Positions 1,941 through 63,996 of a stretch of DNA of 64,000 nt are shown piece after piece. Where the stretch lies: NCBI GenBank assembly GCA_010031735.1, contig RGZB01000002.1:2580-66579 (forward strand). The letters are read 5' to 3'. The first letter of the stretch is position 1. Each line of letters begins with the position of its first letter. The notes under the pieces are model-generated. The model was given only the letters and a program-made list of their open reading frames with translations, was not told where the DNA came from and did no database searches. Origin of the DNA: Pseudomonadota bacterium. GTDB taxonomy: Bacteria > Pseudomonadota > Alphaproteobacteria > Rickettsiales > RGZB01. The position numbers were made by a program, and so were the translations under genes.

Positions 1941-1948
1941 AGCAGCGA

Positions 1949-2591: not shown

Positions 2592-2623
2592 CAAAAAGAA
2601 AGGGGCGGCACTAAGCCGCCCCT
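2592..2623 (-). terminator. Rho-independent terminator downstream of the porin gene
   Basis: Hairpin AGGGGCGGC-N5-GCCGCCCCT (2601-2623), followed on the minus strand by TTCTTTTT. It lies 28 nt after the porin stop. Confidence 0.6.
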
Positions 2624-2650
2624 TCCAAAGTACGCTAAACTTCTAAATGA

Positions 2651-6614: not shown

Positions 6615-6660
6615 AGAACACTCCCTTATCGTTACAGGGATATAGTCTATCAGCAAGAGC

Positions 6661-7257: not shown

Positions 7258-7267
7258 AGAGAACTGC

Positions 7268-7282
7268 TTAACGTTAAATTAA
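7268..7282. promoter_or_regulatory. Perfect TTAA-N7-TTAA (CtrA-type) box
   Basis: TTAACGTTAAATTAA(C). It lies in the divergent metW/ORFan intergenic region, 56 nt upstream of the GTG at 7339. Confidence 0.55.
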
Positions 7283-7338
7283 CCGGAGCGGGCTACACTT
7301 ATACGGTGGAATAAGCGAAATAAAAAGGGCGGAATAGA

Positions 7339-8316: not shown

Positions 8317-8321
8317 TAGCC

Positions 8322-9536: not shown

Positions 9537-12149
9537 CTACGCGTCGGAGTCTGGGTTCTTCTTTTTACGTGTCGTTTTCTTCGCTGACGCCTTGCGTGCC
9601 GGCTTCTTCTTGCCGCCGCCCTCTTTGGCCTGGATGAGAGCGATCGCCTCTTCAAGCGTGAAGGTTTCGGTAGACGCATCCTTCGGGAGCGTCGCGTTGG
9701 TCTTTCCGTGTTTCACATACGGTCCGTATTTACCGGAATAGAGCCCGATATCCTCGCCCGAATCCGGATGCTTGCCGAGAATTTTGAGCGGCGCCGCACT
9801 ACCGCGACCGCCCTTAGCGCCCCGTGCACCGGCACGGGCTGCCGCTTCCGCGATCACCGTGACCGCACGGTTGATGCCGATCGTCAGCACATCATCGCCG
9901 GCTTTGATCGAAGTGTATTTACCGTCATGGAACAGGTACGGACCGAAACGGCCGACACCGGCCTTGATCATCTCACCCGTCTCCGGATGGAGGCCCACTT
10001 CGCGCGGTAATTGCAGGAGCGAGAGCGCCTCCTCGAGCGTCACCGTATCGGGTTTTAAATGCTTGAGCAGCGGCGCACGTTTCGGCTTCTTCTCTTCACC
10101 GAGCTGTACGTAGAAACCATACGGGCCTTGGCGCACGGAGACTTCCTGGCCATCCGGATGATTGCCGAGCACACGCGGATAGCTGCCGCCGACATTCTGT
10201 ACCGGCGTACCGTCTTCATTCTTGTTGCCGATCTCGACATCCAGCTGGCGGGTGTAGCGGCATTCCGGATAGTTCGAGCAACCGATGAAGGCACCGAATT
10301 TACCGACCTTCAACCCAAGCACGCCTTCACCGCAGGTCGGGCATTTGCGGCGCTCTTCCAGGCTACCCTTGCCCGGGAATAAGAAGTCGGCGAGCGTTTG
10401 ATTGAGTGCGTCGATCACGTCGGTGATTTTCAAATCCTTTGCACCTGCGACGTTGTTCGAAAAATCACCCCAGAACGCACGAAGCACCTGTTTCCAATCT
10501 GCTTCGCCAGCAGAGATACGGTCTAGATCTTCTTCCAGATTCGCCGTGAAATCGTATTCGACGTACTTGGTAAAGAATTTGGCCAAGAAGCTTGTGACCA
10601 CGCGGCCGCGGGGTTCTGGCACGAAACGTTTTTTATCGAGCTTCACATACTCACGGTCCTGCAGCACGGCGATGATGCTCGCATAGGTCGACGGGCGGCC
10701 GATGCCGAGCTCTTCCATGCGCTTGACCAAACTTGCTTCCGAGAAACGCGGCGGCGGTTCGGTGAAATGCTGCGCCGGCGTTACTTCCATTTGTTTCAGC
10801 GGCTCGCCTTCATTAAGCGGCGGCAAGATGCGGCCTTCATCGTCGTCATCATCCGGATCGTCGCGGTCTTCGTTATAGAGCGAGAAGAAGCCCGGGAATT
10901 TGATGGTGGACCCGCTCGCACGCAGCATGTTCTTATCTGCGGCGATATCGACCGAGACGACATCCAGCACCGCGCTTTCCATCTGGCTTGCGACCATGCG
11001 CTTCCAGATGAGGTCGTAGAGCGCACGCTGGTCCTCATCAAGATATTTCGCCACACTCGCCGGATCGCGGCGCACATCCGTCGGGCGGATCGCTTCATGC
11101 GCTTCCTGCGCGTTCGCGGCTTTCGACTGGTACATACGCGGGGATTTCGGAACGAAGCTCGTGCCGAAACGCTTCTCGATCAGGTCGCGCGTCGCCATCA
11201 CTGCTTCGGGCGCGACTTCGACACCGTCGGTACGCATGTAGGTGATTAAACCCACGGTTTCCTTGCCGATCTCGACACCTTCGTACAGACGCTGCGCGAG
11301 CTGCATCGTGCGCTTGGCACCGAAGCCGAGCTTGCGGAAGGCTTCCTGTTGCAGGGTAGAGGTAGTGAATGGCGCATACGGATTCCTGCGCGCCTGCTTC
11401 TTCTCGACGGAAGCGACTTTATACGACGCCGAACGGAGCGCGGTTGCGACCGCCTCCGCCTTCGCTTCGTTGTTTAAACTGAATTTCTCGAGCTTCTCGC
11501 CGTTCACATGGGTGAGACGCGCCGTGAAATGTTCTTTGCTGCTCTTCTCGAGCGCAACTTTGATATCCCAGTATTCTTCCGCGATGAATTTTTCGATCTC
11601 TTCCTCCCGGTCGCAGATCAGGCGGAGTGCGACCGACTGCACACGCCCTGCCGAACGCGAGCCCGGCAGCTTGCGCCAGAGAACGGGCGATAGATTGAAA
11701 CCGACGAGATAATCAAGGGCGCGGCGTGCCTGCTGCGCATTCACCAGATCCATATCGATCGCACGTGGTGCGGCCATCGCCGCCTCGACCGCCGTGCGGG
11801 TGATGGAGTTGAACACCACGCGTTCGATCTTGATGTCTTTGGGTAAGGCTTTTTTCTCGCGCAGCGCTTCCACCAGGTGCCATGAAATGGCTTCCCCTTC
11901 ACGGTCCGGGTCCGTCGCCAGGATGAGGGAATCTGCCTTTTTCACCGCATCGGCGATCGCTTTCATATTCTTGGAAGCATCATCCGGCACTTCATAGTGC
12001 ATGAGGAAGTCTTTATCGGGCTCGACCGATCCATCCGCCGAAGGAAGATCGCGGACATGGCCGAAGGAAGCCAGCACTTTATAGTCTGAACCGAGGTATT
12101 TATTAATGGTTTTACTTTTTGCCGGTGATTCGACGATAACTACGCGCAT
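9537..12149 (-). CDS. topA: DNA topoisomerase I
   Basis: 870-aa ORF. It has the Toprim N-terminus MRVVIVESPAKSKTINKYLG, then ...ATDPDREGEAISWH, the active-site region ITYMRTDG, C-terminal Zn-ribbon CPTCG/C..YPEC repeats and a lysine-rich tail. Confidence 0.96.
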   Translation of the reverse strand: MRVVIVESPAKSKTINKYLGSDYKVLASFGHVRDLPSADGSVEPDKDFLMHYEVPDDASKNMKAIADAVKKADSLILATDPDREGEAISWHLVEALREKKALPKDIKIERVVFNSITRTAVEAAMAAPRAIDMDLVNAQQARRALDYLVGFNLSPVLWRKLPGSRSAGRVQSVALRLICDREEEIEKFIAEEYWDIKVALEKSSKEHFTARLTHVNGEKLEKFSLNNEAKAEAVATALRSASYKVASVEKKQARRNPYAPFTTSTLQQEAFRKLGFGAKRTMQLAQRLYEGVEIGKETVGLITYMRTDGVEVAPEAVMATRDLIEKRFGTSFVPKSPRMYQSKAANAQEAHEAIRPTDVRRDPASVAKYLDEDQRALYDLIWKRMVASQMESAVLDVVSVDIAADKNMLRASGSTIKFPGFFSLYNEDRDDPDDDDDEGRILPPLNEGEPLKQMEVTPAQHFTEPPPRFSEASLVKRMEELGIGRPSTYASIIAVLQDREYVKLDKKRFVPEPRGRVVTSFLAKFFTKYVEYDFTANLEEDLDRISAGEADWKQVLRAFWGDFSNNVAGAKDLKITDVIDALNQTLADFLFPGKGSLEERRKCPTCGEGVLGLKVGKFGAFIGCSNYPECRYTRQLDVEIGNKNEDGTPVQNVGGSYPRVLGNHPDGQEVSVRQGPYGFYVQLGEEKKPKRAPLLKHLKPDTVTLEEALSLLQLPREVGLHPETGEMIKAGVGRFGPYLFHDGKYTSIKAGDDVLTIGINRAVTVIAEAAARAGARGAKGGRGSAAPLKILGKHPDSGEDIGLYSGKYGPYVKHGKTNATLPKDASTETFTLEEAIALIQAKEGGGKKKPARKASAKKTTRKKKNPDSDA

Positions 12150-12257
12150 TACTGTCCTGTTATAGAGACTTACAAGGGGCGGAAAAACGACCCTTTAAAG
12201 CAGGGAGGTGTACTAAATGTTGGCGCGTTTGGAAAGTAAAATCGGCGTAAAATCCCA

Positions 12258-12272
12258 TTAACCCTTTGTTAA
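12258..12272. promoter_or_regulatory. Perfect TTAA-N7-TTAA (CtrA-type) box
   Basis: TTAACCCTTTGTTAA(C). It ends 39 nt upstream of the ATG at 12312. TAGAAT (12289-12294) lies 16 nt downstream of the distal half-site, and AAGGAG is at 12301. Confidence 0.6.
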
Positions 12273-12311
12273 CAATAGGTTGTTAGTGTAGAATAGCACG
12301 AAGGAGAAACC

Positions 12312-13157
12312 ATGTCACCCACGACTAGCCACTGGACGGCAGAACAAGTCGCCGGTCTTGCGACCGCGCTCGGCTTCCTTGCCGAGGGCGTGAACAAGGC
12401 CGTTACACTGGTCGGCAAGCATGCGGGGCAGGAGAATGCCGATGCCATGATCAAACCGATCAGCGACGACATGACCGCACTTATTCTCGCGGTGGCGAGT
12501 GCCGATAAAGCCTCCTTGGGCAGCATACTCGAAGACCATTCAGGGGTTCTTTCTGACGCGATCTACGTCTGCCAGAAGCTAAAACTCAAATACAGTGACC
12601 GTTATGCACAAGCCCTTGCTGCAGGCGGCATCGCTGCGCATGAAATCCCACTCCAACCGCCGCCGCGGAAATCCCAAGTCGATACCTTGGAGCGCGCGAC
12701 CACAAAAATCGCGAACGAACAGGAAATGCTCTTGATCGGCTCCCGCTTCGCAGCCGCGGCCGTACAAGCACTCGGCGTCCTTAAGAAAGCCCGGCGTGAA
12801 ACCGTGAATGGCATGAAACTGGAATATGTGGCGGGGCTTACCGTAAAGATACAGAACTGCGATACCGCGTCCGAACTCAAAGAGCTGGTGACCTCCGAAC
12901 GGATGGCGAAATCGCTCTCGACCTCCATGGCCGTGATCAAAGCGCTCGGCGAGCGCAGCATGAACCAGGCGCTCGAGGAATTCTTATCGGCTGCGGAAAA
13001 AGCGAACATCCGCATGATTCCCGCTTCAGCGGAAACCATCCGGGAACTCGGTGGTGCGATCAGCGAAATACGGAAACAACTCAGCGTGAAAACGCCGGAG
13101 ATGGCACCGGCTGCAAAACCGACACCGAAGGATACATCCTCGAACAGCGGTTGGTAG
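12312..13157 (+). CDS. Hypothetical protein (ORFan, predicted helical)
   Basis: 281-aa ORF with an AAGGAG RBS 5 nt upstream of the ATG. No recognisable motif. It is inserted on the opposite strand between dprA and topA. Confidence 0.65.
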   Translation: MSPTTSHWTAEQVAGLATALGFLAEGVNKAVTLVGKHAGQENADAMIKPISDDMTALILAVASADKASLGSILEDHSGVLSDAIYVCQKLKLKYSDRYAQALAAGGIAAHEIPLQPPPRKSQVDTLERATTKIANEQEMLLIGSRFAAAAVQALGVLKKARRETVNGMKLEYVAGLTVKIQNCDTASELKELVTSERMAKSLSTSMAVIKALGERSMNQALEEFLSAAEKANIRMIPASAETIRELGGAISEIRKQLSVKTPEMAPAAKPTPKDTSSNSGW

Positions 13158-13159: not shown

Positions 13160-14311
13160 TTACGCGATCAATGCGACACGGCCACCCGGCAGATGCTCGA
13201 TGCGGCCCGCAAGTTCAAGCTCCAACAGAACGATCTGAATCACGGATGCAGAAAACCCACTGTGCTGGACAAGCGCATCGATCGTGATCGGCACGCTCGA
13301 TAGCATGGAGACGATCTCGCCGCGCGCACGCTCCAATTCCTCTTTCGCCGGCGGATTGAAACGACCGAAACCGTACTGCGTATCTTTCTCTTTTTCGAAA
13401 AGACCGGTATCCGCGCTACGGAAACCGCTGCGGAGCGCCTGCACGATATCGCTCACACCGGTAACGAGTGTCGCCCCTTGTTTGAGCAGGTGGTTAGGGC
13501 CCTCCGAACGCGGATCCGCGGGCGAACCCGGAACCGCGAATACATCCCTTCCCTGTTCGAGCGCCAACCGTGCGGTGATGAGAGAGCCGGAGCGAAGCGT
13601 TGCCTCCACCACCACGGTACCACGCGCCAAACCCGCAATGATGCGGTTACGCTGCGGGAAATGCTGTGCACGGGGCACCGCGCCATACGGAAGTTCGGCG
13701 ACGATCGCGCCCTTCTCCGCGATTTCCTGGTAAAGTCTGGCATTCTCGGGGGGATAGATATTGTCGATACCGCCCGCGAGCACCGCAACCGTGCCACTCG
13801 CGACCGAACCACGATGCGCCGCCGTATCGATCCCGCGTGCCATACCGGAGGCTACAATAAACCCTTCACGGCCCAGTTCTGCAGCTAGGGATTCGGCCAG
13901 GCGAAGACCCGCGAGGGAGGCATTACGCGCACCCACCATGGCCACCGTTTCTGCAGAGAGTGATTTGACATTGCCACGCACCGTGATGACCGGCGGGGCA
14001 TCATGGATCTCTGCAAGCAAGCGCGGATACGCCGCATCGGAACGGATGATGACATGGGCGCCGATACGCGTTGCCGCGGCCATCTCGCGCTCGGCTTCTG
14101 CGCGCGGAGCGATCTTGATCGGACGCTTTTTGCCGCCGCGCAGGGATATCTCCCCCGCCTGCTGGAGCGCGGCATCGACCGAACCGCATAGTTGCGTGAG
14201 CGCATAAAATGCACGCACGCCGACATTCTCGGAGCGATAAAGCTGCAGCCAGGAAATACGCTCTTCCTCGGTTGCGGAAAGAGAAAGGGATTTTTCTACC
14301 TGTGGTTTCAT
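13160..14311 (-). CDS. dprA: DNA-processing protein DprA (Smf)
   Basis: 383-aa ORF. VAMVGARNAS..G...A..LA..L...G..VASGMARGIDTAAH.G......TVAVLAGGID..YP.EN..L.. matches the DprA Rossmann core, and there is a C-terminal winged-helix-like tail. Confidence 0.9.
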   Translation of the reverse strand: MKPQVEKSLSLSATEEERISWLQLYRSENVGVRAFYALTQLCGSVDAALQQAGEISLRGGKKRPIKIAPRAEAEREMAAATRIGAHVIIRSDAAYPRLLAEIHDAPPVITVRGNVKSLSAETVAMVGARNASLAGLRLAESLAAELGREGFIVASGMARGIDTAAHRGSVASGTVAVLAGGIDNIYPPENARLYQEIAEKGAIVAELPYGAVPRAQHFPQRNRIIAGLARGTVVVEATLRSGSLITARLALEQGRDVFAVPGSPADPRSEGPNHLLKQGATLVTGVSDIVQALRSGFRSADTGLFEKEKDTQYGFGRFNPPAKEELERARGEIVSMLSSVPITIDALVQHSGFSASVIQIVLLELELAGRIEHLPGGRVALIA

Positions 14312-32153: not shown

Positions 32154-33866
32154 TTAGAACATCGCCGTAGAAAGGGCGGTGCCGAAATCTGCATGGCCGC
32201 TATCCATACCGATGGTAGTAATCGTCCCTGCATCTGCCACAAGCGTGGTGTTATTCGGGAGCGAACCCACGGCTTTTATTACCTGACTCATATCGACGAA
32301 CTTCATGTTGTTCTCTAAGTGGAAGGTCGCGATCGAATCTGCATCAAGCGTAATATCTTTTGCTGTCAGGTTGATATTGCCTTTCAGCAGGATGTCGATA
32401 TCCGAGGCTTTATCACCTCTTAGATCGGCCCTGACCACGGTGTAGTCATCTCCGTTGATCTTGATGTGCGTAAAGCCCACCTGAGCGACCTTATTGCCCG
32501 CTGTATCCATCAGGTTGTTTTTGAAACCTTCGTTGCCAAGCTCACCCACAAAGGTAACCTGCGTTGCACCGCCGCGGATGGGGTCGCAGAAGGTAAGTTT
32601 ATCGGTAGTGAGCGTGATGAGAGGATCGTTGCTGCCACGGAAATCGGTGATGACATCCAGCTTATCGAGCAAGCCTACATTTATGTTCTTCGCGTTGGTG
32701 AGATCTACCGTGCTACCATCAACCTTAGCAAAGTCGAAAATATCGCGGCCTGCGCCACCTGAGAGTAAATCTGCGCCAGCACCACCCACAATGTAATCGT
32801 TACCGCCACCACCGCTGAGCGTATCGCGGGCATTCGGGGAGTTGTAGGGGTCATCGCTGCCACCCATCAAGATGTCAGAGCCATCGCTGCCGACCAGTGA
32901 GTCGTTGCCTACGCCGCCATCGAGATAGTTACCCGAACCAGGCGCTTTAGAGGCTGCGATGATGGTGTCATTACCGGCATCACCGTAGAGAATATCAAAG
33001 TCTTTATCCGTGTTGTCGCCACCTAGGCCGTTAATGAGGTCGTTACCGTCACCACCATGGACGCTATCGGTGCCGAGACCGCCATTGATCGTATCGTTTC
33101 CTGTGCCGCCATCGAGTGAGTCGCGACCTTCGCCGCCGTCGATGAAGTCGTTGCCCGCATCGCCGGTGATCGTATCGAAATCCGCACCGCCGAAAAGGAA
33201 GATATCATCGCCGTCGCCGCCCTGGATGATGTCTTTACCTGCGCCGCCGGTGATATAATCCGCACCTTCGTCACCGTAAATGGTGTCATTGCCTGCACCG
33301 CCTGCTAAGCGGTCGGTTCCTTCGCCGCCTGCGATATTATCGTTACCATTGCCGCCATCGATATCGTCGTTACCGACGCCGCCGTTAAGGACGTCATCAC
33401 CATCCTCGCCGTAGATCGTATCTTTACCCGAACCGCCGAAGATGGTGTCGTTACCCGCACCGCCATGGAGCTCGTCGCTGCCATAGCCACCATAAATGAG
33501 GTCATTGCCGTCGCCACCGAAGATGCTATCGTCACCATCGCCACCATTCAGCGTATCGTCGCCCCCTAGGCCGGTGATCAGATCGTCGCCCGTGCCGCCG
33601 GTGATGGAGTCGTTACCTTCCGTACCGGTCAATACATAGCCTACCCCCAGTTTTGCATCCGCAGGTACCGTGAGGGTGATGCCACTTGTAGCGGTGGTAG
33701 GGCTTAGTACGTTACCCGGAACGACCGGCGCTACCGTTAATAATGGATCCGATGTGAAGGCTCCCATTACGGTATCGGCTGCTATGGGCGCCGAAAATGC
33801 TACCGGACCCACGGTATCCATGGTTATAGATGCGACAATCGAATCGTTGGTAAATGTATTTTGCAT
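32154..33866 (-). CDS. RTX (repeats-in-toxin) calcium-binding protein, probable T1SS substrate
   Basis: The ORF runs to 33902. I prefer the ATG at 33866 because GGGGAG lies 6 nt upstream. It has roughly 30 tandem GGxGxDxUx nonapeptides (GGTGDDLITGLGGDDTLNGGDGDDSIFGGDGNDLIYGG...). There is no N-terminal signal peptide, and the C-terminus is acidic and hydrophobic. Confidence 0.87.
   Translation of the reverse strand: MQNTFTNDSIVASITMDTVGPVAFSAPIAADTVMGAFTSDPLLTVAPVVPGNVLSPTTATSGITLTVPADAKLGVGYVLTGTEGNDSITGGTGDDLITGLGGDDTLNGGDGDDSIFGGDGNDLIYGGYGSDELHGGAGNDTIFGGSGKDTIYGEDGDDVLNGGVGNDDIDGGNGNDNIAGGEGTDRLAGGAGNDTIYGDEGADYITGGAGKDIIQGGDGDDIFLFGGADFDTITGDAGNDFIDGGEGRDSLDGGTGNDTINGGLGTDSVHGGDGNDLINGLGGDNTDKDFDILYGDAGNDTIIAASKAPGSGNYLDGGVGNDSLVGSDGSDILMGGSDDPYNSPNARDTLSGGGGNDYIVGGAGADLLSGGAGRDIFDFAKVDGSTVDLTNAKNINVGLLDKLDVITDFRGSNDPLITLTTDKLTFCDPIRGGATQVTFVGELGNEGFKNNLMDTAGNKVAQVGFTHIKINGDDYTVVRADLRGDKASDIDILLKGNINLTAKDITLDADSIATFHLENNMKFVDMSQVIKAVGSLPNNTTLVADAGTITTIGMDSGHADFGTALSTAMF
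32738..33627 (-). repeat. Tandem RTX nonapeptide-coding repeat region
   Basis: 27-nt periodic coding repeats encode GGxGxDxxx. They run from GTEGNDSITGGTGDD (about 33627) to GGAGRDIFDF (about 32738). Boundaries are approximate. Confidence 0.7.
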
Positions 33867-33910
33867 GGTATTCTCCCCTATTTCCTGCCTAGAGGCTAAC
33901 ACATGGCTGC

Positions 33911-34118: not shown

Positions 34119-36224
34119 GTGAGCAGTATGATCAACAATATTAAAATCCGCTACCGTATGACCGCTATGGTCATCCCCTTCCTTGTCCCTGTCTTCTACC
34201 TGCTCTACAGTGTCGTCGCTGCCATCAATGCGAATATCGCTTTCACCGATGCAGAACTGATCGGCAACCGCTTTGAACGCCCGCTGATGCAGATGCTGGT
34301 CGATGTCACGGAATACCGTGACCTTATCCAGCGCGAATCGCTCGGCGACCATGCCGCAACGACACAAAAAGCGGAACTACAAAAGACGATCGATACCAAT
34401 ATGCAAACGCTCGGGGCGCTTTATACCGAACTGACGCCTGATTTGAAACTCGATGCCGACAATCTCGCAAAACGTAACCGCTCGAACCTGGAATGGCAGA
34501 AAGTGGCGGCGGTATGGGAAGCCGAAAAAGCCTCGAAAGCCTCGGATGCCGATAGCCCGGCAAGCCAGATGATCGCCAATATCCGCGGCCTCATCGGCCA
34601 TATGGGCGATACGTCGAACCTGATCCTGGATCCGGACCTCGATACCTACTACACGATGGATGCCACGCTCCTCGCACTCCCGCAGACGATCGGCCGTATC
34701 GCCGATATCGTGAATTACACCTATCCGAAATTGAGCGATACCAGCAAACTGGGCGCAAACGAGCGCCGCGAAATACTGATCTACAGCCGCGTGCTCAAGG
34801 AATTCGACCGCGACCGTACGGTCGCGAGTCTGGAGACCGCGCTCAATGAAGACCCGAACTTCTACGGCGTCAGCCCGACCTTCAAGGCGAAAGTGACACC
34901 GGCCAAAGAACGGTATGCGGCGGCGAACCAAAAGCTGATCGATGCCTTGGCAGCACTCGGCACGGAAGGGAGCTACTTGGGCTCCAAAGAATTCCTCGCC
35001 ATCGCAGCAGAGGCGAAAAAAGCCTCAGAGGATATGTTCACCACCGCGATCGATGAAATGGATATCATGCTGAAAACGCGCAACGATAAATACTACAGCG
35101 ACCAGTACCAGGTAGAGGCGGGTGCCGCGATCATCCTGCTGCTTGCTGCCGTATTCTGTATGGTTGTTACCCGCGGCATTACCCGCCCGCTGCACGGGCT
35201 CAAGTCGGTGATGGGCAACATCGCCGAAGGGAAACTCGAAACGCAAGTGCCGTCGCTCGATCAGAAAGACGAGATCGGCGAGATGGCGCAGGCCACCGAA
35301 CATCTGCGTAAAACCTCGCTACAGGCGCGCGAACTCGAAGCCGCGCAGCGCAGGGAAGAAGCGAAGAAAGGCGAACGCCAACGCAAGATCGATGAACTGA
35401 TCAAACAATTCGAAGCGCGTGCGATGGCGGCGACCAGTTCGGTTACGAATTCTTCGCGCCAACTGTGCTCGACCGCGCAATTCATGGCGCAGATCGTGAC
35501 GGATGCGAATAAAAAATCGACCACGATCGAAAAATCCTCTGCGAGCACGTCGGGTAACGTCGAAAGCGTCGCGGCGGCAGCAGAAGAGCTATCGGTTTCC
35601 GTGCAGGAGATCTCCGAACAGATCGGCAATTCCAGCAAAATCGTCGAGGAGACCGTGAGTAAAATGGCGGTGGCCGATAAAGCATCCTCGGCGCTTGCAA
35701 ACTCGGCACAATCGATCAATACCGTCGTGCAACTGATCGAAGAGATCGCAGGCCAGATCAATCTGCTTGCCCTCAACGCGACCATCGAATCGGCGCGCGC
35801 GGGTGAGGCTGGCAAAGGCTTCGCGGTGGTGGCAAGCGAAGTGAAGAACCTCGCACAACAAACGACCAAGGCAACCGAAGAAATTTCTGAGCAGATCGCA
35901 ACGCTACAGAGCATTTCAGGCGATGTGGTGGGTGCGCTTAACACGATCCGCGATTCCATCAATTCCGTGAGCCAATTCAGCGGCGGCATCGCCTCCGCGG
36001 TGGAAGAGCAGACGGCCGTCACCCGCGAGATCTCGAATAATATGGCCGGTGCTTCGAAAAGCGTCACCGAGATCAACAAGGACATCCGTGCCGTGACACA
36101 GGCATCCGATGATGCACGCATGTCGACGGACGAAGTGCTGGAATCGGCGAATGCCATGGCCAAACAGGCAGAAGTGCTGAACGAAGAGATCCGTGCCTTC
36201 TTGCAGGGTATCAACGCCGCCTAA
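34119..36224 (+). CDS. Methyl-accepting chemotaxis protein
   Basis: 701-aa ORF (GTG at 34119, alternative ATG at 34128). It has two TM segments around a ~300-aa periplasmic domain, a HAMP region, and a highly conserved signalling hairpin QINLLALNATIESARAGEAGKGFAVVASEVKNLAQQT. Confidence 0.92.
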   Translation: MSSMINNIKIRYRMTAMVIPFLVPVFYLLYSVVAAINANIAFTDAELIGNRFERPLMQMLVDVTEYRDLIQRESLGDHAATTQKAELQKTIDTNMQTLGALYTELTPDLKLDADNLAKRNRSNLEWQKVAAVWEAEKASKASDADSPASQMIANIRGLIGHMGDTSNLILDPDLDTYYTMDATLLALPQTIGRIADIVNYTYPKLSDTSKLGANERREILIYSRVLKEFDRDRTVASLETALNEDPNFYGVSPTFKAKVTPAKERYAAANQKLIDALAALGTEGSYLGSKEFLAIAAEAKKASEDMFTTAIDEMDIMLKTRNDKYYSDQYQVEAGAAIILLLAAVFCMVVTRGITRPLHGLKSVMGNIAEGKLETQVPSLDQKDEIGEMAQATEHLRKTSLQARELEAAQRREEAKKGERQRKIDELIKQFEARAMAATSSVTNSSRQLCSTAQFMAQIVTDANKKSTTIEKSSASTSGNVESVAAAAEELSVSVQEISEQIGNSSKIVEETVSKMAVADKASSALANSAQSINTVVQLIEEIAGQINLLALNATIESARAGEAGKGFAVVASEVKNLAQQTTKATEEISEQIATLQSISGDVVGALNTIRDSINSVSQFSGGIASAVEEQTAVTREISNNMAGASKSVTEINKDIRAVTQASDDARMSTDEVLESANAMAKQAEVLNEEIRAFLQGINAA

Positions 36225-52410: not shown

Positions 52411-53328
52411 TCAGAAAGGATTATAGAACGGCTCGCGGCATAAGCGGCGCAAGGTATAACGCCCCAATTTTAAGGTCATATAGACCTTGAGATAGAGTGG
52501 GCCGTGCAAGAAGAAATAGCCGTACATCCGTAGTATATCACAGTAGGTAATGTTCTCTACAGGGATATAGCGATACAGCTTGATGTAGGCGAGTATCATA
52601 CGGTCATCGAGTTCCTTGCCGAAGAAGGATTTGAATCCATGCCGGAAGGATTGCACTTCGTTCATGACAGAAACGCTGTGGGTGCGTGATTTCGCATGCA
52701 CGCGGTATTTTACCAATGCGACAGGAAGATTATCCATGATCGCACCCTTCTCAAAACACAGCATGCGGAAATGAAAATCCTCCACCTTCTTGAGGTTCGG
52801 GAAGCGTAGATTATGGCGTTCTAAGAACGCCCTGCGATACATACAGGTAGCATGGTAGAAGCAGCCCTTGAAATAAATCCAGCGGGCAATGTTCTTCGTG
52901 CCGACGATGGCCACTCCGAGACCGCTGCTATTGCCGAAATGTTCCGTAAATGTACCGAGCACATCGAGCTCAGGGTGATTTTCCATATGGCCGACTTGCA
53001 TCGCAAGACGTTCAGGTAATGCAATATCGTCTGCATCGAGAAAAGCCAGGTATTTACCCTCCGCGATATCCATGCCGCGGTTGCGCGCCGCACCGGGCCC
53101 TGTGTTCTCCGGCTGTCGCAGGATTTGGATCCGCGGATCCTTTAATGTCGCGAGATACGCATGCGAACCGTCCGTGGAACAGTCATCCACGATGATCAGC
53201 TTCCAGTTGGTGTAGGTTTGCGCAAGGATGCTTTCCACAGCCTCCGGCAGGTAAGGCATCGCATTGTACGTAGGTAGGATGACCGTTACGAGGGGTGCAG
53301 ATCCCGGGGTTGTAGTGCTATTCGGCAT
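52411..53328 (-). CDS. Family 2 glycosyltransferase
   Basis: 305-aa ORF. VTVILPTYNAMPYLPEAVESILAQTY.NWKLIIVDDCSTDGS...FLDADD is the GT-A/GT2 signature. It overlaps the yejF end by 11 nt. Confidence 0.85.
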   Translation of the reverse strand: MPNSTTTPGSAPLVTVILPTYNAMPYLPEAVESILAQTYTNWKLIIVDDCSTDGSHAYLATLKDPRIQILRQPENTGPGAARNRGMDIAEGKYLAFLDADDIALPERLAMQVGHMENHPELDVLGTFTEHFGNSSGLGVAIVGTKNIARWIYFKGCFYHATCMYRRAFLERHNLRFPNLKKVEDFHFRMLCFEKGAIMDNLPVALVKYRVHAKSRTHSVSVMNEVQSFRHGFKSFFGKELDDRMILAYIKLYRYIPVENITYCDILRMYGYFFLHGPLYLKVYMTLKLGRYTLRRLCREPFYNPF

Positions 53329-54937
53329 CGATCAATGCGCTCTCGATGAGGCGTTTCGTGTAATCGGTTTTGGGTTTTGAGAATATCTGCGAATTGGTAC
53401 CGCTCTCCACAATCTTCCCTTCCTTCATCACGACGATATCATGTGCGATGGAGCGAATCACACGCAGGTCATGCGAGATGAAGATATACGAAAGCTTACG
53501 CTGCTTTTGTAGGGCCTTCAGCAGTTCGAGGATATCCGATTGTGTCGAGAGATCGAGTGCGCTCGTGGGTTCATCGAGCACGAGCAGGCTGGGATTGAGC
53601 ACCAACGCACGTGCAATAGCGATACGTTGGCGCTGGCCGCCCGAGAATTCATGCGGATAACGATGCTTAAGGCCGCCATCGAGCCCTACTTCTTTCAGGG
53701 CCGCGATGACCGTCTTTTCGATGGATTCGGGTGTAAGGTCTGCTTGGTGTGCACGAAGCCCTTCTGCCACAGTGTCGCGCACGGTGAGGCGTGGATTCAA
53801 ACTCGCGAACGGATCCTGGAATACGATCTGCATGCGGCTTCGAAGCGTCCGAAGTGCATCGCCATTCACACCCCGGAGATCTGTGCCCTCGAATTGGATC
53901 GAGCCCGTTGATTCCGTAAGACGAAGGACTGCATGCGCGAGCGTCGATTTTCCAGAACCCGACTCACCGACGATGCCCAGTGTACGTCCGGTTTTGAGCG
54001 TGAGCGTCACATCATTCACGGCGTCTAAGTGGCGCGTCGTCATACCAAAGAAATTCTTGGCGAGCGGGAAGCGCACCGTCAAGTGTGTGACTTCTGCGAT
54101 CGGGGCGCTGCTGCCTTTCATCATGACCGGCTTACCGTGCGGTGCGGACTCTAACAGGTGTTTGGTGTAGGGATGTTTGGGTTTCCTGAATACCTCCGCG
54201 ACCGCGCCGCTTTCAACGAGCACGCCTTTTTGCATAATGGCGACACGATCCGCCATCCGGCGAACCAGGGTCAGATCATGCGTAATCAGGAGTACGCCCA
54301 TACCCAGACTCTTCTGCAGATCTTTGAGTAAGGTGAGTATCTGTGCTTGTACTGTGACATCGAGCGCGGTGGTCGGTTCATCCGCGATCAAGATATCGGG
54401 TTTATTCGCAAGCGCCATCGCGATGCAAATGCGTTGGCGCTGGCCGCCCGAGAGTTCATGCGGATACGCCTTCAGGCGGCTCTCGAGTGCTTCGAGCCCG
54501 ACCATCGTCAATAGTTCGCTGGTGCGCTTCTTCAGTGCATCCGGCCAGAGGGCCTGGTGCAGCAAAATCGCTTCGTGTATCTGTTTCTCGATCGTATGCA
54601 GCGGGTTTAACGCGGACATCGGCTCTTGGAAGACCATGCTGATCTGTTTACCGCGAATGGCCTGCAGGCCGACATCGCTCCTGAGCGAAATATCCTGACC
54701 ACGGAACAAGGTATTTCCTTTGACCAGCCGCGCATTGGCGGGCAGCAGTTTCAACACCGAAAGCGCAGTGACCGTCTTGCCGGAGCCCGATTCGCCCACC
54801 AGGGCAACGAGCTCCCCGCGCCCGATCTGCAGCGAAAGGTTCTGGACGACGGGTTGGTCGTAGGCATTGCCATCCGCATCCACGTTACGGAAGCTGACCG
54901 AGAGGTCCTTGATCTCAAGTAAATGTGCCGAGCGCAT
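53318..54937 (-). CDS. yejF: Peptide/microcin-C-type ABC transporter, fused double ATPase (YejF-like)
   Basis: 539-aa ORF with two ABC cassettes. Walker A is GESGSGKT and GESGSGKS, the signature is LSGGQRQR and FSGGQRQR, and Walker B is ILIADEPTTALD and LLVLDEPTSALD. Confidence 0.82.
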   Translation of the reverse strand: MRSAHLLEIKDLSVSFRNVDADGNAYDQPVVQNLSLQIGRGELVALVGESGSGKTVTALSVLKLLPANARLVKGNTLFRGQDISLRSDVGLQAIRGKQISMVFQEPMSALNPLHTIEKQIHEAILLHQALWPDALKKRTSELLTMVGLEALESRLKAYPHELSGGQRQRICIAMALANKPDILIADEPTTALDVTVQAQILTLLKDLQKSLGMGVLLITHDLTLVRRMADRVAIMQKGVLVESGAVAEVFRKPKHPYTKHLLESAPHGKPVMMKGSSAPIAEVTHLTVRFPLAKNFFGMTTRHLDAVNDVTLTLKTGRTLGIVGESGSGKSTLAHAVLRLTESTGSIQFEGTDLRGVNGDALRTLRSRMQIVFQDPFASLNPRLTVRDTVAEGLRAHQADLTPESIEKTVIAALKEVGLDGGLKHRYPHEFSGGQRQRIAIARALVLNPSLLVLDEPTSALDLSTQSDILELLKALQKQRKLSYIFISHDLRVIRSIAHDIVVMKEGKIVESGTNSQIFSKPKTDYTKRLIESALIDAE

Positions 54938-55145: not shown

Positions 55146-55221
55146 GAGCGCGTAGCTCAGTCGGTAGAGCACCTGACTTTTAATCAGGTTGTCGTTGGTT
55201 CGATTCCAACCGCGCTCACCA
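55146..55221 (+). tRNA. tRNA-Lys (anticodon UUU), CCA encoded
   Basis: GAGCGCG-TA-GCTC-AGTCGGTA-GAGC-A-CCTGA-CTTTTAA-TCAGG-TTGTC-GTTGG-TTCGATT-CCAAC-CGCGCTC-A-CCA. All four stems pair, and the anticodon is TTT. Confidence 0.94.
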
Positions 55222-57743: not shown

Positions 57744-58247
57744 TTAATAAGGCGAGCGGCCTTCTTGCGTCTTGCCTTGCAGCACGAGTTCCGGGTGCTG
57801 GGTCTCGCCGATTTTCTGTGCCACCTGTTTGATGACCTTGAGCGCCGTCGGGCCTGGATCCTTGATGCCAGCGGCGGTGGCGATGGCTTTGGCCTCGTTA
57901 TCATCGATCTTGCCGTCATTGGTGATGGCATTATCAATAGCGCCCGCAGCGAAGAGCTGCAGTTTCGATTCTAAACTCAGTTCTTCTTCCGGCTCGTCTT
58001 TTTCCTTCTCCGGCGCAAAACGCTCGGTGAGGGCGGCCTCTAAGGCCTTGATCTGTTCCGGTGTCAGCTGGTCGAGGAAAGACTGTACATCGTCCTGCAT
58101 CACCGGGCCTGCCGGCACCTTCGCGGTGAGCGTGATATCCGGCTCACTTCCTTTGCCGGCATCGACTTCTGTTTTTTTATCTTCTGCTGTGCCGCTGAAC
58201 ATCGCAAGGCCCAGTGTCAGATTCTTAAATATGTCGAAAAATGCCAT
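57744..58247 (-). CDS. Hypothetical acidic protein (167 aa, ORFan)
   Basis: The ATG at 58247 is preceded by AGGGGGAA at 4 nt. The N-terminus is MAFFDIFKNLTLGLAMF. The rest is helical, acidic and E/K-rich. No recognisable family. Confidence 0.55.
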   Translation of the reverse strand: MAFFDIFKNLTLGLAMFSGTAEDKKTEVDAGKGSEPDITLTAKVPAGPVMQDDVQSFLDQLTPEQIKALEAALTERFAPEKEKDEPEEELSLESKLQLFAAGAIDNAITNDGKIDDNEAKAIATAAGIKDPGPTALKVIKQVAQKIGETQHPELVLQGKTQEGRSPY

Positions 58248-58457: not shown

Positions 58458-58844
58458 CTACGCCGCCTTTATGGCTACTTTTTTCTTCTTCTTTGCCCTT
58501 GCCGTGTTTTTGTCGCCGTGATGGCGCGCTTCCACACGCTCTGCCGCGGATTTGATATGGTCATAGGTCTTCGGTTTGATGTTGGCATCACCGCCGACGC
58601 GGGCTGCAATGGCCGCGATATCGGACGGGGAAAGATTGTCGTCTTCTGCGAGGGAGGCGATCAGGTCATCGAGCTGTTCTACTTTTTCATCGAGCTCCGG
58701 GTTATCCTCGCCGAGTTCGCCAGCTTCGAGCTGTGTATCCGCATCCGGTGCGATGGCATCGATCTCTTTGAGCGTCTCGATGACCGCTTCTTTGGTATCC
58801 GGATTTGCTTCTATCGCTTCTACAATTTGATCGACATCTGCCAC
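58458..58844 (-). CDS. Hypothetical acidic protein (128 aa, ORFan)
   Basis: The GTG at 58844 is preceded by AAGAGG at 7 nt. The body is very acidic and the C-terminus is basic (ARAKKKKKVAIKAA). The ORF ends just after an A6 tract. Confidence 0.55.
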   Translation of the reverse strand: MADVDQIVEAIEANPDTKEAVIETLKEIDAIAPDADTQLEAGELGEDNPELDEKVEQLDDLIASLAEDDNLSPSDIAAIAARVGGDANIKPKTYDHIKSAAERVEARHHGDKNTARAKKKKKVAIKAA

Positions 58845-58926: not shown

Positions 58927-59949
58927 TTACAGCGACTTACGCGGATTGAACGCATCGCGCACCGCTTCGCCGATAAAAATGAGCAAGGTCAGGGTGATGG
59001 CAAGCAGGAAGAATCCCGAGATGCCAAGCCATGGCGCCTGCAGGTTCGATTTTCCCTGTGCGAGGAGTTCGCCGAGCGAAGCAGAGCCCGGAGGAAGCCC
59101 CAGCCCTAAGAAATCGAGCGAGGTGAGGGTGGTGATGGCGCCATTCAGGATGAACGGCAGGAACGTGAGCGAAGCGACGAAGGCATTCGGCAGGATATGG
59201 CGGAAGATGATGGTGCGTTCTTTGACGCCGAGGGCACGCGCGGCCTTCACATATTCGAGTTTACGCACTTTCAGGAACTCCGCACGCACGACACCAACGA
59301 GTGCCATCCACGAGAACAGCAGCATGATGAGGAGCAGCCAACCGACATTGGGCTCGACGAAACTGGCCAGGATAATCAGCATATAGAGAATCGGAAGTCC
59401 GCTCCAGACCTCGATCACACGCTGCAACACCAGGTCCACCCAACCGCCGAAATACCCTTGCAGTGCACCGGCAAAGATACCGATCACCGAACTGATGATG
59501 GTGAGCACGAGCCCGAATATCACCGACAGGCGGAAGCCGTAGATCAGGCGTGCCACTACATCGCGGCCCTGATCGTCGGTGCCGAGGATATTGGTGTGTG
59601 TGGGCGCGGAAGGTGCCACGGAGGGAAGATCGTAATTGATGGTGTTATAACTGAATTCGATGAGCGGCATCACCATCCAGCCCTTCTTCTGGATGAGTGC
59701 TTTGACGTACGGGTCGCGGTAGTCCGCTTCGGTCTCGAAATCGCCGCCGAACGTCGTTTCGGGATAGAACTTCCAGACCGGCATGTAAAGCCCGCCATCG
59801 TAGGAAACCAGAATCGGCTTATCGTTCGCGATGAATTCCGCGAAGAGGGAGAGGGTGAATACCAGGGTGAAGAAAACAAAGCTATAGAACCCGCGGCGAT
59901 TGGCGCGGAAAAGATGCAGGCGGCGGCGGGTAAGCGGCGATAGGGTCAA
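58927..59949 (-). CDS. yejE: Peptide ABC transporter permease (YejE-like)
   Basis: 340-aa, 6-TM ORF. It has the BPD-transporter EAA loop KLEYVKAARALGVKERTIIFRHILPN and the N-terminus RLHLFRANRRGFYSF typical of YejE. Confidence 0.86.
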   Translation of the reverse strand: MTLSPLTRRRLHLFRANRRGFYSFVFFTLVFTLSLFAEFIANDKPILVSYDGGLYMPVWKFYPETTFGGDFETEADYRDPYVKALIQKKGWMVMPLIEFSYNTINYDLPSVAPSAPTHTNILGTDDQGRDVVARLIYGFRLSVIFGLVLTIISSVIGIFAGALQGYFGGWVDLVLQRVIEVWSGLPILYMLIILASFVEPNVGWLLLIMLLFSWMALVGVVRAEFLKVRKLEYVKAARALGVKERTIIFRHILPNAFVASLTFLPFILNGAITTLTSLDFLGLGLPPGSASLGELLAQGKSNLQAPWLGISGFFLLAITLTLLIFIGEAVRDAFNPRKSL

Positions 59950-59951
59950 GG

Positions 59952-59966
59952 TTAACCAAATGTAAA
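59952..59966. promoter_or_regulatory. One-mismatch CtrA-type box (TTAA-N7-TAAA)
   Basis: TTAACCAAATGTAAA. It lies 60 nt upstream of the ATG at 60027. Confidence 0.25.
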
Positions 59967-60026
59967 TGTTTTGAGTATAAGATTAGATGTAGACGAATTG
60001 TTGCGTTGAACAAAGGAATTTTTGAC

Positions 60027-60878
60027 ATGGGCGGCCACAAGAAGCTCAAACAACAGATACTCGACATATTGGAGCGCACCACGGGCATCGAGTGGAGCGT
60101 GAAGAAGGATTATGTCCGTGTGGATGATGAATGGAAAAAAGAATTCGTCTTCACTCCTTCGAAAGCGTGTCGCTTTAAAGAGCCGTGGTTCGTGAACGGC
60201 TCGCCGGGCCTAGACAGCGTGACCGCAGAATCACAAACCTTCCACGACCAGCTTGCCGCAGTGCGGCAACCGCAATTCCATGCCAAAAAACCGGAAGGAT
60301 TACGCTGGCGACTCGATTTTACCTTCGAACACCCGGACGGGAATTATTTCGTGCCGCAGCTCTTGATACGTAAGGCAGAGCTATTCCGCCCCGATCAATC
60401 GACCATCGAAGGGCAGGCGTACCGTTACGGCAAGATCATCGCGCCGGTAGTGGCTGCCCTTTCGCCGATTAGCGTGAAGCGCAAACTCGAGAAAATGGCA
60501 TTGCCGGAAGGTGAGCGTCCGAACCATATGCTGACACTCGAAGAATTTGCAGAGGTGCTGGGCGTAAAGACAGGCAAAAAGATCGCACCGGAGCTGGAAG
60601 CACTCTGGGAAGAGATCGGGAGGGCCTACGCACTGGATGCGGATAACCCGCTCCTTCGGGAACAACCGATCGATTGTGAACCCTACAAACTCAAGAAACA
60701 TATGCATGAGATATGCGTATCGGAAGATGAGGTGGCACTGCTCCGGGGGATGTTAGGACAGGTGGCTACAGAGGCACCGGGTGCAAATGGTACCGGGAAT
60801 GGCAACAGCTATGTCGTTGATCTATTTGGCGATCCTGTGGATTCAGCGCCCAAGAAGAAGGGTAAGCGCAAACGCTGA
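60027..60878 (+). CDS. Hypothetical protein (ORFan) with a basic C-terminal tail
   Basis: The ORF track starts at the TTG at 60006. I prefer the ATG at 60027 (MGGHKKLKQQ...). It ends ...VDLFGDPVDSAPKKKGKRKR. No recognisable family. Confidence 0.58.
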   Translation: MGGHKKLKQQILDILERTTGIEWSVKKDYVRVDDEWKKEFVFTPSKACRFKEPWFVNGSPGLDSVTAESQTFHDQLAAVRQPQFHAKKPEGLRWRLDFTFEHPDGNYFVPQLLIRKAELFRPDQSTIEGQAYRYGKIIAPVVAALSPISVKRKLEKMALPEGERPNHMLTLEEFAEVLGVKTGKKIAPELEALWEEIGRAYALDADNPLLREQPIDCEPYKLKKHMHEICVSEDEVALLRGMLGQVATEAPGANGTGNGNSYVVDLFGDPVDSAPKKKGKRKR

Positions 60879-60947
60879 ATGACGGCCGTTTGTCATCAAA
60901 TTTTAACCTTGTTTCACTATCATTAGTTCTAGCCGTCCCAAGGGGCA

Positions 60948-61945
60948 TGGCATGTAAAAACGGTCAGAGACAAGGGATGACACCGGACAAAAAACCCATA
61001 CCCTGGAATGAGCGTCTGTTTTCCGATTGGAAAAAGAAGCATGTCTCTGCGGAAGCGAAAGATTACACGGTGCAGTATAAAGATGTCCCGGTAAGCGAAA
61101 CGCTCGCCGGATTCTCCGGACCCGTGCTGACCGGACCGTTACCAGAAGAACTTCCCATCCTATCCAAACGTCAGGTGCGCGAAGGAAGAATCAAACTGCC
61201 GCGCGATATCTGTACCCATGCGATGTCAGAGAGCGCGCGCGAGGTCGTGTTCATCTACCCGGTAAGCTTCCGCAATTTCGAACGTCTGAGCGCCCTTGAT
61301 CCAGAAAACCGCACCGAGGCAGAGCTGATGGGGCTGGATATCGGCGGCGGGTTGTTCTCGATGTATGAGGATACACGCGTGTTCGCAGAAAAACGCGGTC
61401 TTGTGGTTTCGACGATGCCGGTTTTCAAACTGACCGAGAATTCGAGCGTTGCAGCACAGATCGCACCCGTGCGGTTCTGGAGCCCGAAAGCGCCGTCCAA
61501 AGACGGACTCTTCGTCATCATGGATGATATCGTCGAGAAGGGTCGTACGGTCGCAGCTATCCATGCGCTCCTGAAAGAACACGGCATTCCCGACACTCAC
61601 ATATGCTGTATCTACACACGGCAGAAAGAAGAATACCAGCCGATCCACCTGACCGATGGCCAGAAACAGCAGATCGCGGAACTGAGAGCCGATGATCCAG
61701 AGGTTGCAGAACGTACCGATGTGGTGCTCGCACGCATAGGCATCAGTGGGATGGAAGCACTTTTCTGCAAGGAAGCGCGTTATCTCGGCATCGATGGTAA
61801 GGGCGCACCGGCAGCAGTCGATGCGGCCTTAGAGAGGGCGTATACCGAATCGATCGGCGCCATGCCTGCGATCCCGCATGTGAGCGAAGCCTACCTCGCA
61901 CGGATCGAACGTGCAGGCTATCTGCGCGGTAGCCGCAGCCGTTAG
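60948..61945 (+). CDS. Hypothetical protein with a type-I phosphoribosyltransferase-like PRPP-binding motif
   Basis: The ORF begins at 60890 and the start is uncertain (ATG at 60948 or 60977). [23 protein letters not shown] (about 61504-61570) has the same spacing as the PRTase loop (compare HGPRT VLIVEDIIDTGKT). It is preceded by ~200 aa that I cannot assign. Confidence 0.5.
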
Positions 61946-63066
61946 GCTTTTCCTAATTTCGCGAAATCGATACGCGGATCGACGATCGTGTAAAGGATGT
62001 CGCCGATCAGATTGAAGATCAGCCCCAAGAGCGTGAAGAAGAAGAGTGTGCCGAACATCACGGGATAGTCGCGGTTCATTGCTGCTTCAAAGCCGAGAAG
62101 CCCCAGACCATCGAGTGAGAAAATCACTTCGATCAGAAGAGAGCCGGTAAAAAGAATAGAGAGGAATGCTGCCGGGAAACCCGCGATCACGATCAGCATG
62201 GCGTTACGGAAGACATGGCCATAGAGCACCTGGCGCTCCGAACATCCTTTTGCGCGCGCGGTCAGCACATATTGTTTACCGATCTCCTCGATGAACGAAT
62301 TCTTCGTGAGCATCGTGAGCGAGGCGAAACCCCCGATCACCATGGCCACTATGGGCAGCACCAAGTGCCAGAAATAATCCGCGACCTTCATGAAGAGGCT
62401 CATCTCCGACCAGCCATCGGACGTGAGGCCGCGCAGCGGGAAGATGCTCACATAACTTCCACCCGCAAAGAGGATGATGAGCAGCACGGCAAAAAGGAAA
62501 CTCGGTATCGCGTAGCCGATGGTGATCGCGGTCGAGGTCCATACATCGAACGGCGTGCCATCGCGCACGGCTTTCTTGATGCCGAGCGGTATCGAGATGA
62601 TATAGATGAGGAGCGTGGTCCAAAGCCCCAGCGAGATCGACACCGGCATCTTCTCGAGCACCAGGCTCACGACGCTACGGCCTTTAAAAAAACTGTCGCC
62701 GAAATGGAAGGTCGCGTAATCCTTCATCATGATCCAGAAACGCTCATGCGCGGGTTTATCGAAGCCGTACATCTTCTCGATGGATTTGATCACATCCGGT
62801 TCCAAACCCTGCGCGCCACGGTATTTGCTGGGCGCATTGGAAGTGCTGTGTTGTTGGGGTTTCGGCGCCGCGAGCATGTCGCCGCCGCCACCCGCGAAGC
62901 GCTCGGTCGCACCCACGCCGGTGCCGGTGATCTGCGAGATCGCCTGCTCCACAGGGCCGCCAGGCGCGGCTTGCACGATGATGAAATTCACCAGCATGAT
63001 GCCGAACAGTGTCGGGATGATAAGCAATAAACGTTTGAGGATGTAGGCGAACATGCCTACAGGCAT
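61942..63066 (-). CDS. yejB: Peptide ABC transporter permease (YejB-like)
   Basis: 374-aa ORF. The N-terminus is [34 protein letters not shown]. It has a long periplasmic loop and the EAA loop [25 protein letters not shown]. Confidence 0.86.
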
Positions 63067-63615: not shown

Positions 63616-63996
63616 TCACTCTTTCGAGGCCTTCGTGATCGTCAGAATGGTATCACGTTCGGCGCGCCACTCCTTGAGGTACTCCTGCGCGCTGCGGTCC
63701 ACGGTTCCTTCTCGGTCTTCCCAACTCCACTGAATCGACAGGGGCTGGGACGAGCTGAAACTGCTTCCCTTCGGCATGCTGAGCACCACCACGGTGACGG
63801 TGTCCTTGACCACCACGGCTTCCACCGCGATGTCTCCACCCTTCTTGGGGCTGGAGAACGTGATCTTCGCACCACGAATCTTCGTCTCTCCGTCGTCCTC
63901 GATTTCCTTCTTGATCTTCGCGGCCGCGCCACCCTTCTTCGGGGCGGCCTTCGGCTCTTCGTCGTCGGCCTTCTTGTCCTTGGCCTTCGGCGTCAC
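63616..63996 (-). CDS. Hypothetical protein, basic low-complexity N-terminus; possibly 5'-truncated by the window edge
   Basis: 126-codon ORF starting at a GTG 4 nt from the window end, so the frame may continue upstream. It looks locally more GC-rich than its neighbours by eye. No recognisable family. Confidence 0.45.
   Translation of the reverse strand: MTPKAKDKKADDEEPKAAPKKGGAAAKIKKEIEDDGETKIRGAKITFSSPKKGGDIAVEAVVVKDTVTVVVLSMPKGSSFSSSQPLSIQWSWEDREGTVDRSAQEYLKEWRAERDTILTITKASKE

Follow-up and report, generated by a model that had tools for sequence, protein, structure and literature searches.

Between the ABC permease genes yejE and yejB, a 64-kb stretch of DNA (referred to here as the window) carries two open reading frames (ORFs), g1 and g2, that fill positions 59950-61945 on the plus strand; both yej genes lie on the minus strand. 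The window comes from the chromosome of an uncultured alphaproteobacterium. We favour the explanation that the 2-kb stretch is not a defence module but consists of two ordinary chromosomal accessory genes that were inserted, in this lineage, at the yejB–yejE junction, with g2 encoding a protein predicted to bind phosphoribosyl pyrophosphate (PRPP) or a nucleotide. We put the probability of this explanation at roughly 0.55. The original prediction had described an opposite-strand, two-gene cassette within the yej genes, and the ORFs, the NCBIfam assignments of the flanking genes and the codon usage confirmed it. In the list below, PRTase denotes phosphoribosyltransferase.

58927..59949, minus strand: yejE-type ABC permease gene (NCBIfam NF011596, 462.7 bits against a cut-off of 439; Pfam BPD_transp_1), divergent from g1
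59952..59966, unstranded: CtrA-type box TTAA-N7-TAAA with one mismatch, 61 bp 5′ of the g1 ATG
60013..60019, plus strand: Shine-Dalgarno-like AAAGGAA of g1, read from the sequence
60027..60878, plus strand: g1, encoding a 283-aa orphan with the basic tail KKKGKRKR; ORF with coding-type codon usage
60977..61945, plus strand: g2, encoding a 322-aa PRTase-like protein (P0002), according to profile matches, family alignment, model and Foldseek
61511..61552, plus strand: PRPP-loop motif of g2, 14 residues (179-192), according to sequence, family invariance and alignment to HPRT/APRT loops
61942..63066, minus strand: yejB ABC permease gene (NCBIfam NF011712, 554.6 bits against a cut-off of 445), convergent with g2

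Both flanking genes score above the curated NCBIfam cut-offs for permeases of a yejABEF-type microcin C/peptide ABC transporter. The g2 and yejB stop codons overlap by 4 bp. The spacers measure 77 bp from the yejE start to the g1 start and 98 bp from g1 to g2. The longest ORF for g1 begins at 60006; the ATG at 60027 was chosen as the start and has AAAGGAA 8 nt 5′ of it. As predicted, the product (NCBI locus tag EB060_01125) comprises 283 residues and ends in KKKGKRKR (60852-60875; full end SAPKKKGKRKR). The g2 ORF spans 60890-61945. Its best start, the ATG at 60977, coincides with the NCBI start, fits the N-termini of the family described below and yields 322 residues instead of the ~330 first estimated. 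The codon-usage score was of coding type only in frame 0 (+0.08 for g1 and +0.15 for g2, versus −0.2 to −0.4 in the other frames), and no competing long ORF was found opposite either gene. The GC content of both genes, overall and by codon position (GC, GC1, GC2 and GC3), fell within the range of the other window genes. No GC anomaly was found, and neither direct nor inverted repeats border the insert.

The PRTase-like protein g2 and its family

The PRPP-loop signature proposed for g2 proved to be real. An exhaustive phmmer search of 1.84 billion representative proteins returned 11 relatives (E = 9e-45 to 6e-9; 28-38% identity; 248-347 aa), ten of which align with g2 essentially end to end, the other (P0013) being shortened. 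In the 12-sequence family alignment, A1, whose members are 25-37% identical, the invariant residues are G45, P148, K151, R166, W168, P173, D183, G189, T191 and L199, and D184 is conserved in at least 90% of the sequences. Thus, the loop residues D183, G189 and T191, and very nearly D184, are retained throughout a divergent family. The consensus motifs of the family are GYxGPRERLPIPE, KKIVIxYPT, LPMVKLT, PVRFWT, DDxxExGxT, LRxxHPxxAxRAD and LIGIxxxEALT; the YPT motif sits after strand 1. The g2 loop aligns with VLIVEDIIDSGNT and VLIVEDIIDTGKT of HPRTs. Residues 169-232 of g2 matched Pfam PF00156 (22.8-22.9 bits, E = 6e-5), and this model is hit by 6 of the 12 family members. A profile search with A1 in a word-indexed database returned only two family members. 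No relatives were found on phages or plasmids, and pattern scans revealed no further members in IMG/VR or JGI metagenome contigs. Most family members end in a short positive tail with Arg at or near the end (e.g., ...SRSR, ...SPQR, ...QHTR, ...TPTR, ...ATRR and ...PVER).

An AlphaFold2 (AF2) model of g2, generated from a 12-sequence alignment, had a predicted local distance difference test (pLDDT) score of 81.7 and a predicted template modelling (pTM) score of 0.84. The modelled strand 89-96 is followed by helices and strand 143-151; after a loop containing a short strand (167-169) come strand 177-183, which ends in DD, then helix 190-201, strand 209-214 and, up to residue 312, five helices. 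In the model, this strand order is that of a type I PRTase core with predicted equivalents of the pyrophosphate (PPi), flexible and PRPP loops. The original prediction had placed an uncharacterized region of ~200 aa before the loop; the modelled core starts near residue 85, and the true N-terminal extension comprises ~85 aa (residues 1-42 modelled with low confidence). At the other end of the protein, a helical domain of ~100 aa (residues 225-322) stands where salvage enzymes have the hood. Foldseek, which had been proposed as a check, returned type I PRTases almost exclusively, though as weak matches: these made up 49 of the top 50 in the PDB, with PyrR and PurR at ranks 5, 13, 14 and 31. The top matches in BFVD were likewise PRTases.

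Comparison with the salvage PRTases (HPRT, APRT, XPRT and UPRT; PF00156) revealed a shared loop of four hydrophobic residues, DD, two hydrophobic residues and x-x-G-x-T, and, in the model, the same succession of strands and helices in the core; these enzymes also account for nearly all of the top Foldseek matches. The F-L-P-x-V-K-L stretch at the end of strand 2 of g2 further resembles APRT. By contrast, g2 is ~140 aa longer, scores under the Pfam and all NCBIfam cut-offs, carries its own G-[YF]-x-x-P motif in the N-terminal extension and has the C-terminal helical domain in place of the hood, with whole-protein template modelling (TM) scores of 0.2-0.3. The best NCBIfam scores were 18.8 bits for Hpt (cut-off 181), 16.9 for Prs (296), 14.4 for Apt (146), 13.2 for Xpt (138) and 14.4 for GntX/ComF (304). 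Overall, the PRTase models of NCBIfam matched only the loop of g2, at 11-19 bits against cut-offs of 113-304. On these scores, we rejected g2 as an ordinary salvage PRTase (Hpt, Apt or Xpt) and as a PRPP synthetase. ComF/GntX was rejected as well: it resembles g2 in having a PRTase-like domain with a non-metabolic role, and matched weakly over the PRPP loop, but g2 lacks the N-terminal four-cysteine zinc finger, having one Cys in its first 100 residues and no CxxC pair in its N-terminal part. We conclude that g2 does belong to the PRTase superfamily, as a very divergent member that lies outside every characterized family therein. Judged by sequence, the g2 family is a putative new, very rare and uncharacterized branch of the type I PRTase superfamily. 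Of the two findings that the original prediction had set against itself, a g1-g2 pair that is not conserved was observed (see below), whereas a g2 that is an ordinary salvage PRTase or ComF was not.

According to the favoured explanation, g2 would be a cytoplasmic protein that binds PRPP or a 5-phosphoribosyl nucleotide via DD and G-x-T; this activity is predicted because the modelled core runs from strand-helix-strand through a hairpin loop to a strand that ends in DD, followed by the G-x-T phosphate loop. Residues K151 and R166, in the flexible-loop region, are predicted to contact pyrophosphate or phosphate. The protein might transfer a phosphoribosyl group to an acceptor or, by analogy with PurR and PyrR, might merely sense its ligand. 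Specificity would be conferred by the N-terminal G-[YF]-x-x-P motif together with the C-terminal helical domain. Should g2 prove to be enzymatically active, it would define a new, very rare branch of the superfamily and slightly extend the growing set of PRTase-fold proteins with roles outside nucleotide salvage. As it stands, the finding opens no long-standing question.

Several points weigh against the favoured explanation. First, the similarity of g2 to PRTases is weak everywhere: the PF00156 score falls below the gathering threshold of 26.3 bits, the Foldseek E-values are 3.7e-3 or higher with query TM scores of 0.21-0.29, and comparison of A1 by hhalign with single sequences of Hpt and Apt from E. 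coli produced alignments that were centred on the PRPP loop and had a probability of <3%. Second, a conserved PRPP loop is likewise retained in non-catalytic regulators, for example PurR and PyrR, and in toxins, for example ShosT (PMC11961720). Third, the evidence for co-transcription of g1 and g2, which is probable, consists of their common strand and 98-bp spacer. Finally, the scope of the analysis was 64 kb of the genome.

The g2 protein might instead be a non-catalytic, PRPP- or nucleotide-sensing regulator akin to PurR and PyrR, in which the C-terminal helical domain, with its L-I-G-I-x-x-h-E-A-L motif resembling a helix-hairpin-helix (HhH), binds nucleic acid. We consider this unlikely. 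The occurrence of PyrR and PurR among the Foldseek matches is consistent with such a role, as are the conservation of LIGIxxxEALT in the C-terminal domain and, in g1, a helix-turn-helix (HTH)-like stretch, LTLEEFAEVLGVKTGKKI, and a basic tail. However, the motif resemblance was noted by eye only, no Pfam HhH or HTH model matched at E ≤ 1 and no target operon recurs beside the family members.

The yejB–yejE junction and g1

The yejB–yejE junction is a recurrent site of lineage-specific genes in this clade, and the g1-g2 insert is one instance. We base this conclusion on related genomes, including the nearest, which are also split there. Among 72 related loci holding both genes, the gap between yejB and yejE is ≤154 bp in 68, with yejF then following yejE, and 392-1003 bp in the remaining four, which include close relatives. 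Three loci, L001 (YejB identity of 74%), L009 and L065, have unrelated ORFs of ~1 kb between the two genes and on the same strand, as follows.

L001, 9119-10057: unrelated lineage-specific ORF at the junction
L009, 5651-6415: unrelated lineage-specific ORF at the junction
L065, 9186-10067: unrelated lineage-specific ORF at the junction

The g1-g2 insert differs from these only in its antisense orientation, and yejB and yejE must therefore be separate transcription units in the window; a candidate promoter for yejE lies within g1 (60137-60109, minus strand). More generally, conserved operons of these uncultured alphaproteobacteria are split by lineage-specific genes. In L002, L070 and L017, no yejE occurs downstream of yejB. 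In the window, 4 kb intervene between yejE and yejF (53318-54937, encoding a YejF-like double ABC ATPase), and this interval holds two acidic orphan ORFs, folB, the genes for an SDR and a pfkB-family kinase, and a tRNA-Lys gene (55146-55221); no yejA adjoins yejB. In L065, an ORF between yejE and yejF (11161-12354) looks, from its sequence, like an M20-type hydrolase.

No homologue of g1 was found. A word-indexed search of 5.8 billion proteins matched only g1 itself, and there was no match in Pfam, NCBIfam, PADLOC or PDB sequences. A search of PHROGs gave only a chance-level match of 13 bits (E = 0.15). Searches using tblastn against phages and plasmids (E ≤ 1), and against all 95 fetched loci and the window, returned nothing. 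A second g1-bearing contig, L092, is from the same sample and is 100% identical over 2002 bp; it is therefore not an independent occurrence of the gene. A single-sequence AF2 model of g1 had a pLDDT of 38 and was unusable. The predicted protein is soluble and near neutral overall (isoelectric point (pI) of 7.7), with a tail charge of +4, and its LTLEEFAEVLGVKTGKKI stretch looks HTH-like by eye only, with no model confirming it. In the favoured explanation, g1 would be a species-specific, soluble protein with a Lys/Arg tail that may bind nucleic acid. It would probably be co-transcribed with g2 from its own promoter carrying a CtrA-like box. The idea that the basic C-terminal tails of g1 and of most g2 relatives mark secreted effectors was abandoned, as the ORFs scanned in the window included no secretion-system gene.

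The one-mismatch CtrA-type box said to precede the cassette is present: the g1 box, TTAACCAAATGTAAA at 59952-59966, deviates from TTAA-N7-TTAA at one position. One-mismatch boxes are by themselves not enriched in the window (14 versus ~10 expected). Perfect 15-bp boxes, by contrast, number nine versus 0.24 expected (at 7268, 12258, 14388, 19419, 33911, 36248, 41091, 43303 and 55327). All nine are intergenic and lie 10-60 bp 5′ of start codons, and several are palindromic, with the form TTAAC-N5-GTTAA. They have the appearance of a CtrA-like element, for a promoter or a transcription factor, that is widespread in this organism. The g1 box is identical at 13 of 15 positions to the perfect box at 55327, before pfkB, which suggests that g1 uses a native promoter element recognized by a CtrA-like factor or another factor that binds TTAAC-N5-GTTAA. 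A native promoter element before g1 argues for long residence in this genome. No CtrA-type box was found upstream of the g2 relatives.

That g1 is a decaying or recently arisen ORF and not a functional gene, with only g2 under selection, is about as improbable as a regulatory role for g2. The absence of homologues anywhere searched, the low confidence of the AF2 model and a codon-usage score that is the lowest of the set, one glycosyltransferase excepted, would all fit a non-functional ORF. Nonetheless, the 283 codons of g1 are uninterrupted and preceded by a good Shine-Dalgarno sequence, its codon signal is positive in frame 0 and negative in the other frames, and the opposite strand offers no better ORF.

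Placement of g2 relatives and comparison with conflict systems

We read the genomic context of 10 of the 11 g2 relatives. All ten are on alphaproteobacterial-looking contigs (with GapR, DciA, gene transfer agent (GTA), nuo, atp and lpt genes) and occupy eight kinds of place, including the following.

P0003 (L081): within a polysaccharide cluster, following a GT4 gene
P0004 (L085): after nuoB, nuoC and the gene of a 417-aa membrane protein, overlapping the lpxC 3′ end by 6 bp
P0009 (L087): between the RNase HII gene and dciA
P0010 (L089): between a hemN-like gene and nadE
P0011 (L091): alone, 5′ of a transporter gene
P0005 (L093): in antisense orientation, flanked by ftsY and a miaB-like gene and overlapping the latter by 21 bp
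P0007 (L095, region 751-3701) and P0013 (L083/84; region 3-1898 of L083): in antisense orientation, with a prohead protease gene (Peptidase_S78) on one side and an HK97 major capsid gene on the other
P0008 (L094, region 860-3160): divergent from a capsid gene, with no protease gene called beside it

The relatives are single genes that interrupt gene pairs otherwise conserved; many are antisense and directly adjoin the 3′ end of a housekeeping gene. Their placement looks like moron-type insertion without a visible mobility gene; the neighbours of the ten included no reverse transcriptase (RT), nuclease, integrase or transposase. P0013, the shortened copy of 248 aa, overlaps the protease gene by 55 bp. 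The head module of L095 and L083 is GTA-like or a prophage remnant, and a GTA g15-like gene lies ~7 kb from P0009. In L085, the nuo cluster is broken (4316-8957) and reads nuoB, a histidine phosphatase gene, nuoC, the gene of a hexapeptide-repeat protein, that of the 417-aa membrane protein and P0004.

A check of co-occurrence spoke against conservation of the pair. No g1-like gene is adjacent to any of the ten relatives, and the only recurring neighbours are the head-module genes, which recur within one subfamily. As no neighbour otherwise recurs and none is g1-like, and as g1 is without a homologue, g1 and g2 are not a conserved unit.

PRTase-fold proteins have been described in bacterial conflict systems. 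ShosT is a toxin of this fold outside standard nucleotide metabolism; it binds PRPP via its PPi, flexible and PRPP loops, carries a pyrophosphatase domain at its N-terminus and is paired with a DprA-like antitoxin (PMC11961720, PMC12961424). PRTase-like effectors also occur in type III retrons, such as Retron-Eco11. In these, the PRTase-like domain is sometimes accompanied by a C-terminal winged helix, and an RT and a non-coding RNA (ncRNA) are needed next door (PMC7736814, PMC12746101). By analogy, these proteins illustrate activities that might be possible for g2.

The link to conflict systems raised in the original prediction was not borne out. According to PADLOC, the locus holds no defence system: the only match was to ShosT, with 13 bits (E = 0.016) over 43 residues at the g2 PRPP loop. 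Like ShosT, g2 is predicted to have a PRTase-like fold; unlike ShosT, it has no pyrophosphatase domain and no DprA-like partner. According to Pfam, g1 has no DprA domain, and the sole dprA of the window is the housekeeping gene at 13160-14311. With the type III retron effectors, g2 shares a PRTase-like domain and an extra C-terminal domain, but no RT or ncRNA lies beside it. Domain scans also confirmed the earlier statement that no RT, nuclease or other defence hallmark is nearby: no RT domain was found in the neighbours or in the other ORFs scanned, which covered most of those of ≥200 aa in the window, and no nuclease or defence gene lies near g1-g2. The window contains no Rfam retron RNA and no PADLOC retron model matched. 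Together with the lack of relatives on phages, plasmids and viral contigs, these data indicate that g2 belongs, on every test of membership, neither to ShosTA nor to the type III retrons. The reading of the locus as a defence cassette is not supported, and there is no evidence for a new defence system.

It is very unlikely that g2 is a toxic, PRTase-like conflict effector resembling that of ShosTA or a type III retron, with g1 as its antitoxin or sensor. Such effectors do exist (PMC11961720, PMC7736814, PMC12746101), and the weak ShosT match, the scattered, non-syntenic and often antisense placement of the family and the moron-like position of three members adjoining an HK97 head-module capsid gene could be read in this way. 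Nevertheless, the ShosT match is limited to the 43 residues of the PRPP loop, a DprA-like, RT, ncRNA, winged HTH or nuclease partner is missing and the composition of g1 and g2 is host-like. Moreover, g1 is absent from the ten relatives, most of which are solitary, which is unlikely for a toxin, and no relatives occur on phages, plasmids or IMG/VR contigs.

An equally doubtful proposal is that the g2 family represents a hitherto unrecognized type of self-contained, insertion-prone PRTase-fold gene with a nucleic-acid-binding C-terminal domain, which repeatedly landed antisense between conserved neighbours (yejB and yejE, prohead protease and capsid, ftsY and the miaB-like gene) and acts as a single-gene conflict or exclusion factor or as a GTA-particle accessory under CtrA-type control. 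In Rhodobacter, CtrA control of GTA genes is established. Least probable of all is that the family is tied to GTA or prophage head modules, as a moron or particle accessory, and that the window copy was relocated and is under CtrA-type control: P0007 and P0013, between prohead protease and capsid genes, P0008, beside a capsid gene, P0009, near the g15-like gene, and the CtrA-type box 5′ of g1 would agree with this, but the three head-module copies belong to one subfamily and may all go back to one ancestral insertion, phage-like neighbours are lacking for six other members and for the window copy, the relatives have no CtrA-type box upstream and no GTA gene was seen in scans of the window.

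Other features of the window

The window contains the housekeeping genes topA, dprA, plsY, hemH, hemE, aroE, coaE, dnaQ, secB, guaB, rho and mdh, together with genes for the E2 and E3 components of a 2-oxoacid dehydrogenase (candidate sucB and lpdA), an RTX protein and a chemoreceptor. Numerous window ORFs have no Pfam domain. Long antisense ORFs occur on the plus strand within yejE (59197-59943, 248 aa) and yejB (62215-63030, 271 aa); these are by-products of codon bias and not genes.

Three small orphan ORFs with coding-type codon usage lie on the minus strand at 57744-58247, 58458-58844 and 63616-63996. None has a Pfam match above the cut-off; one, orf128, has two sub-threshold matches only. 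Two of the three products are acidic (pI of ~4.5), one of these ending in a lysine run, ARAKKKKKVAIKAA, that recalls the g1 tail, and the third has a Lys-rich N-terminus.

Finally, the genes for an RTX calcium-binding repeat protein (32154-33902, minus strand) and a methyl-accepting chemotaxis protein (34119-36224, plus strand) flank a perfect TTAA-N7-TTAA box. The presence of these two genes suggests a motile, free-living or predatory lifestyle rather than that of an obligate endosymbiont.

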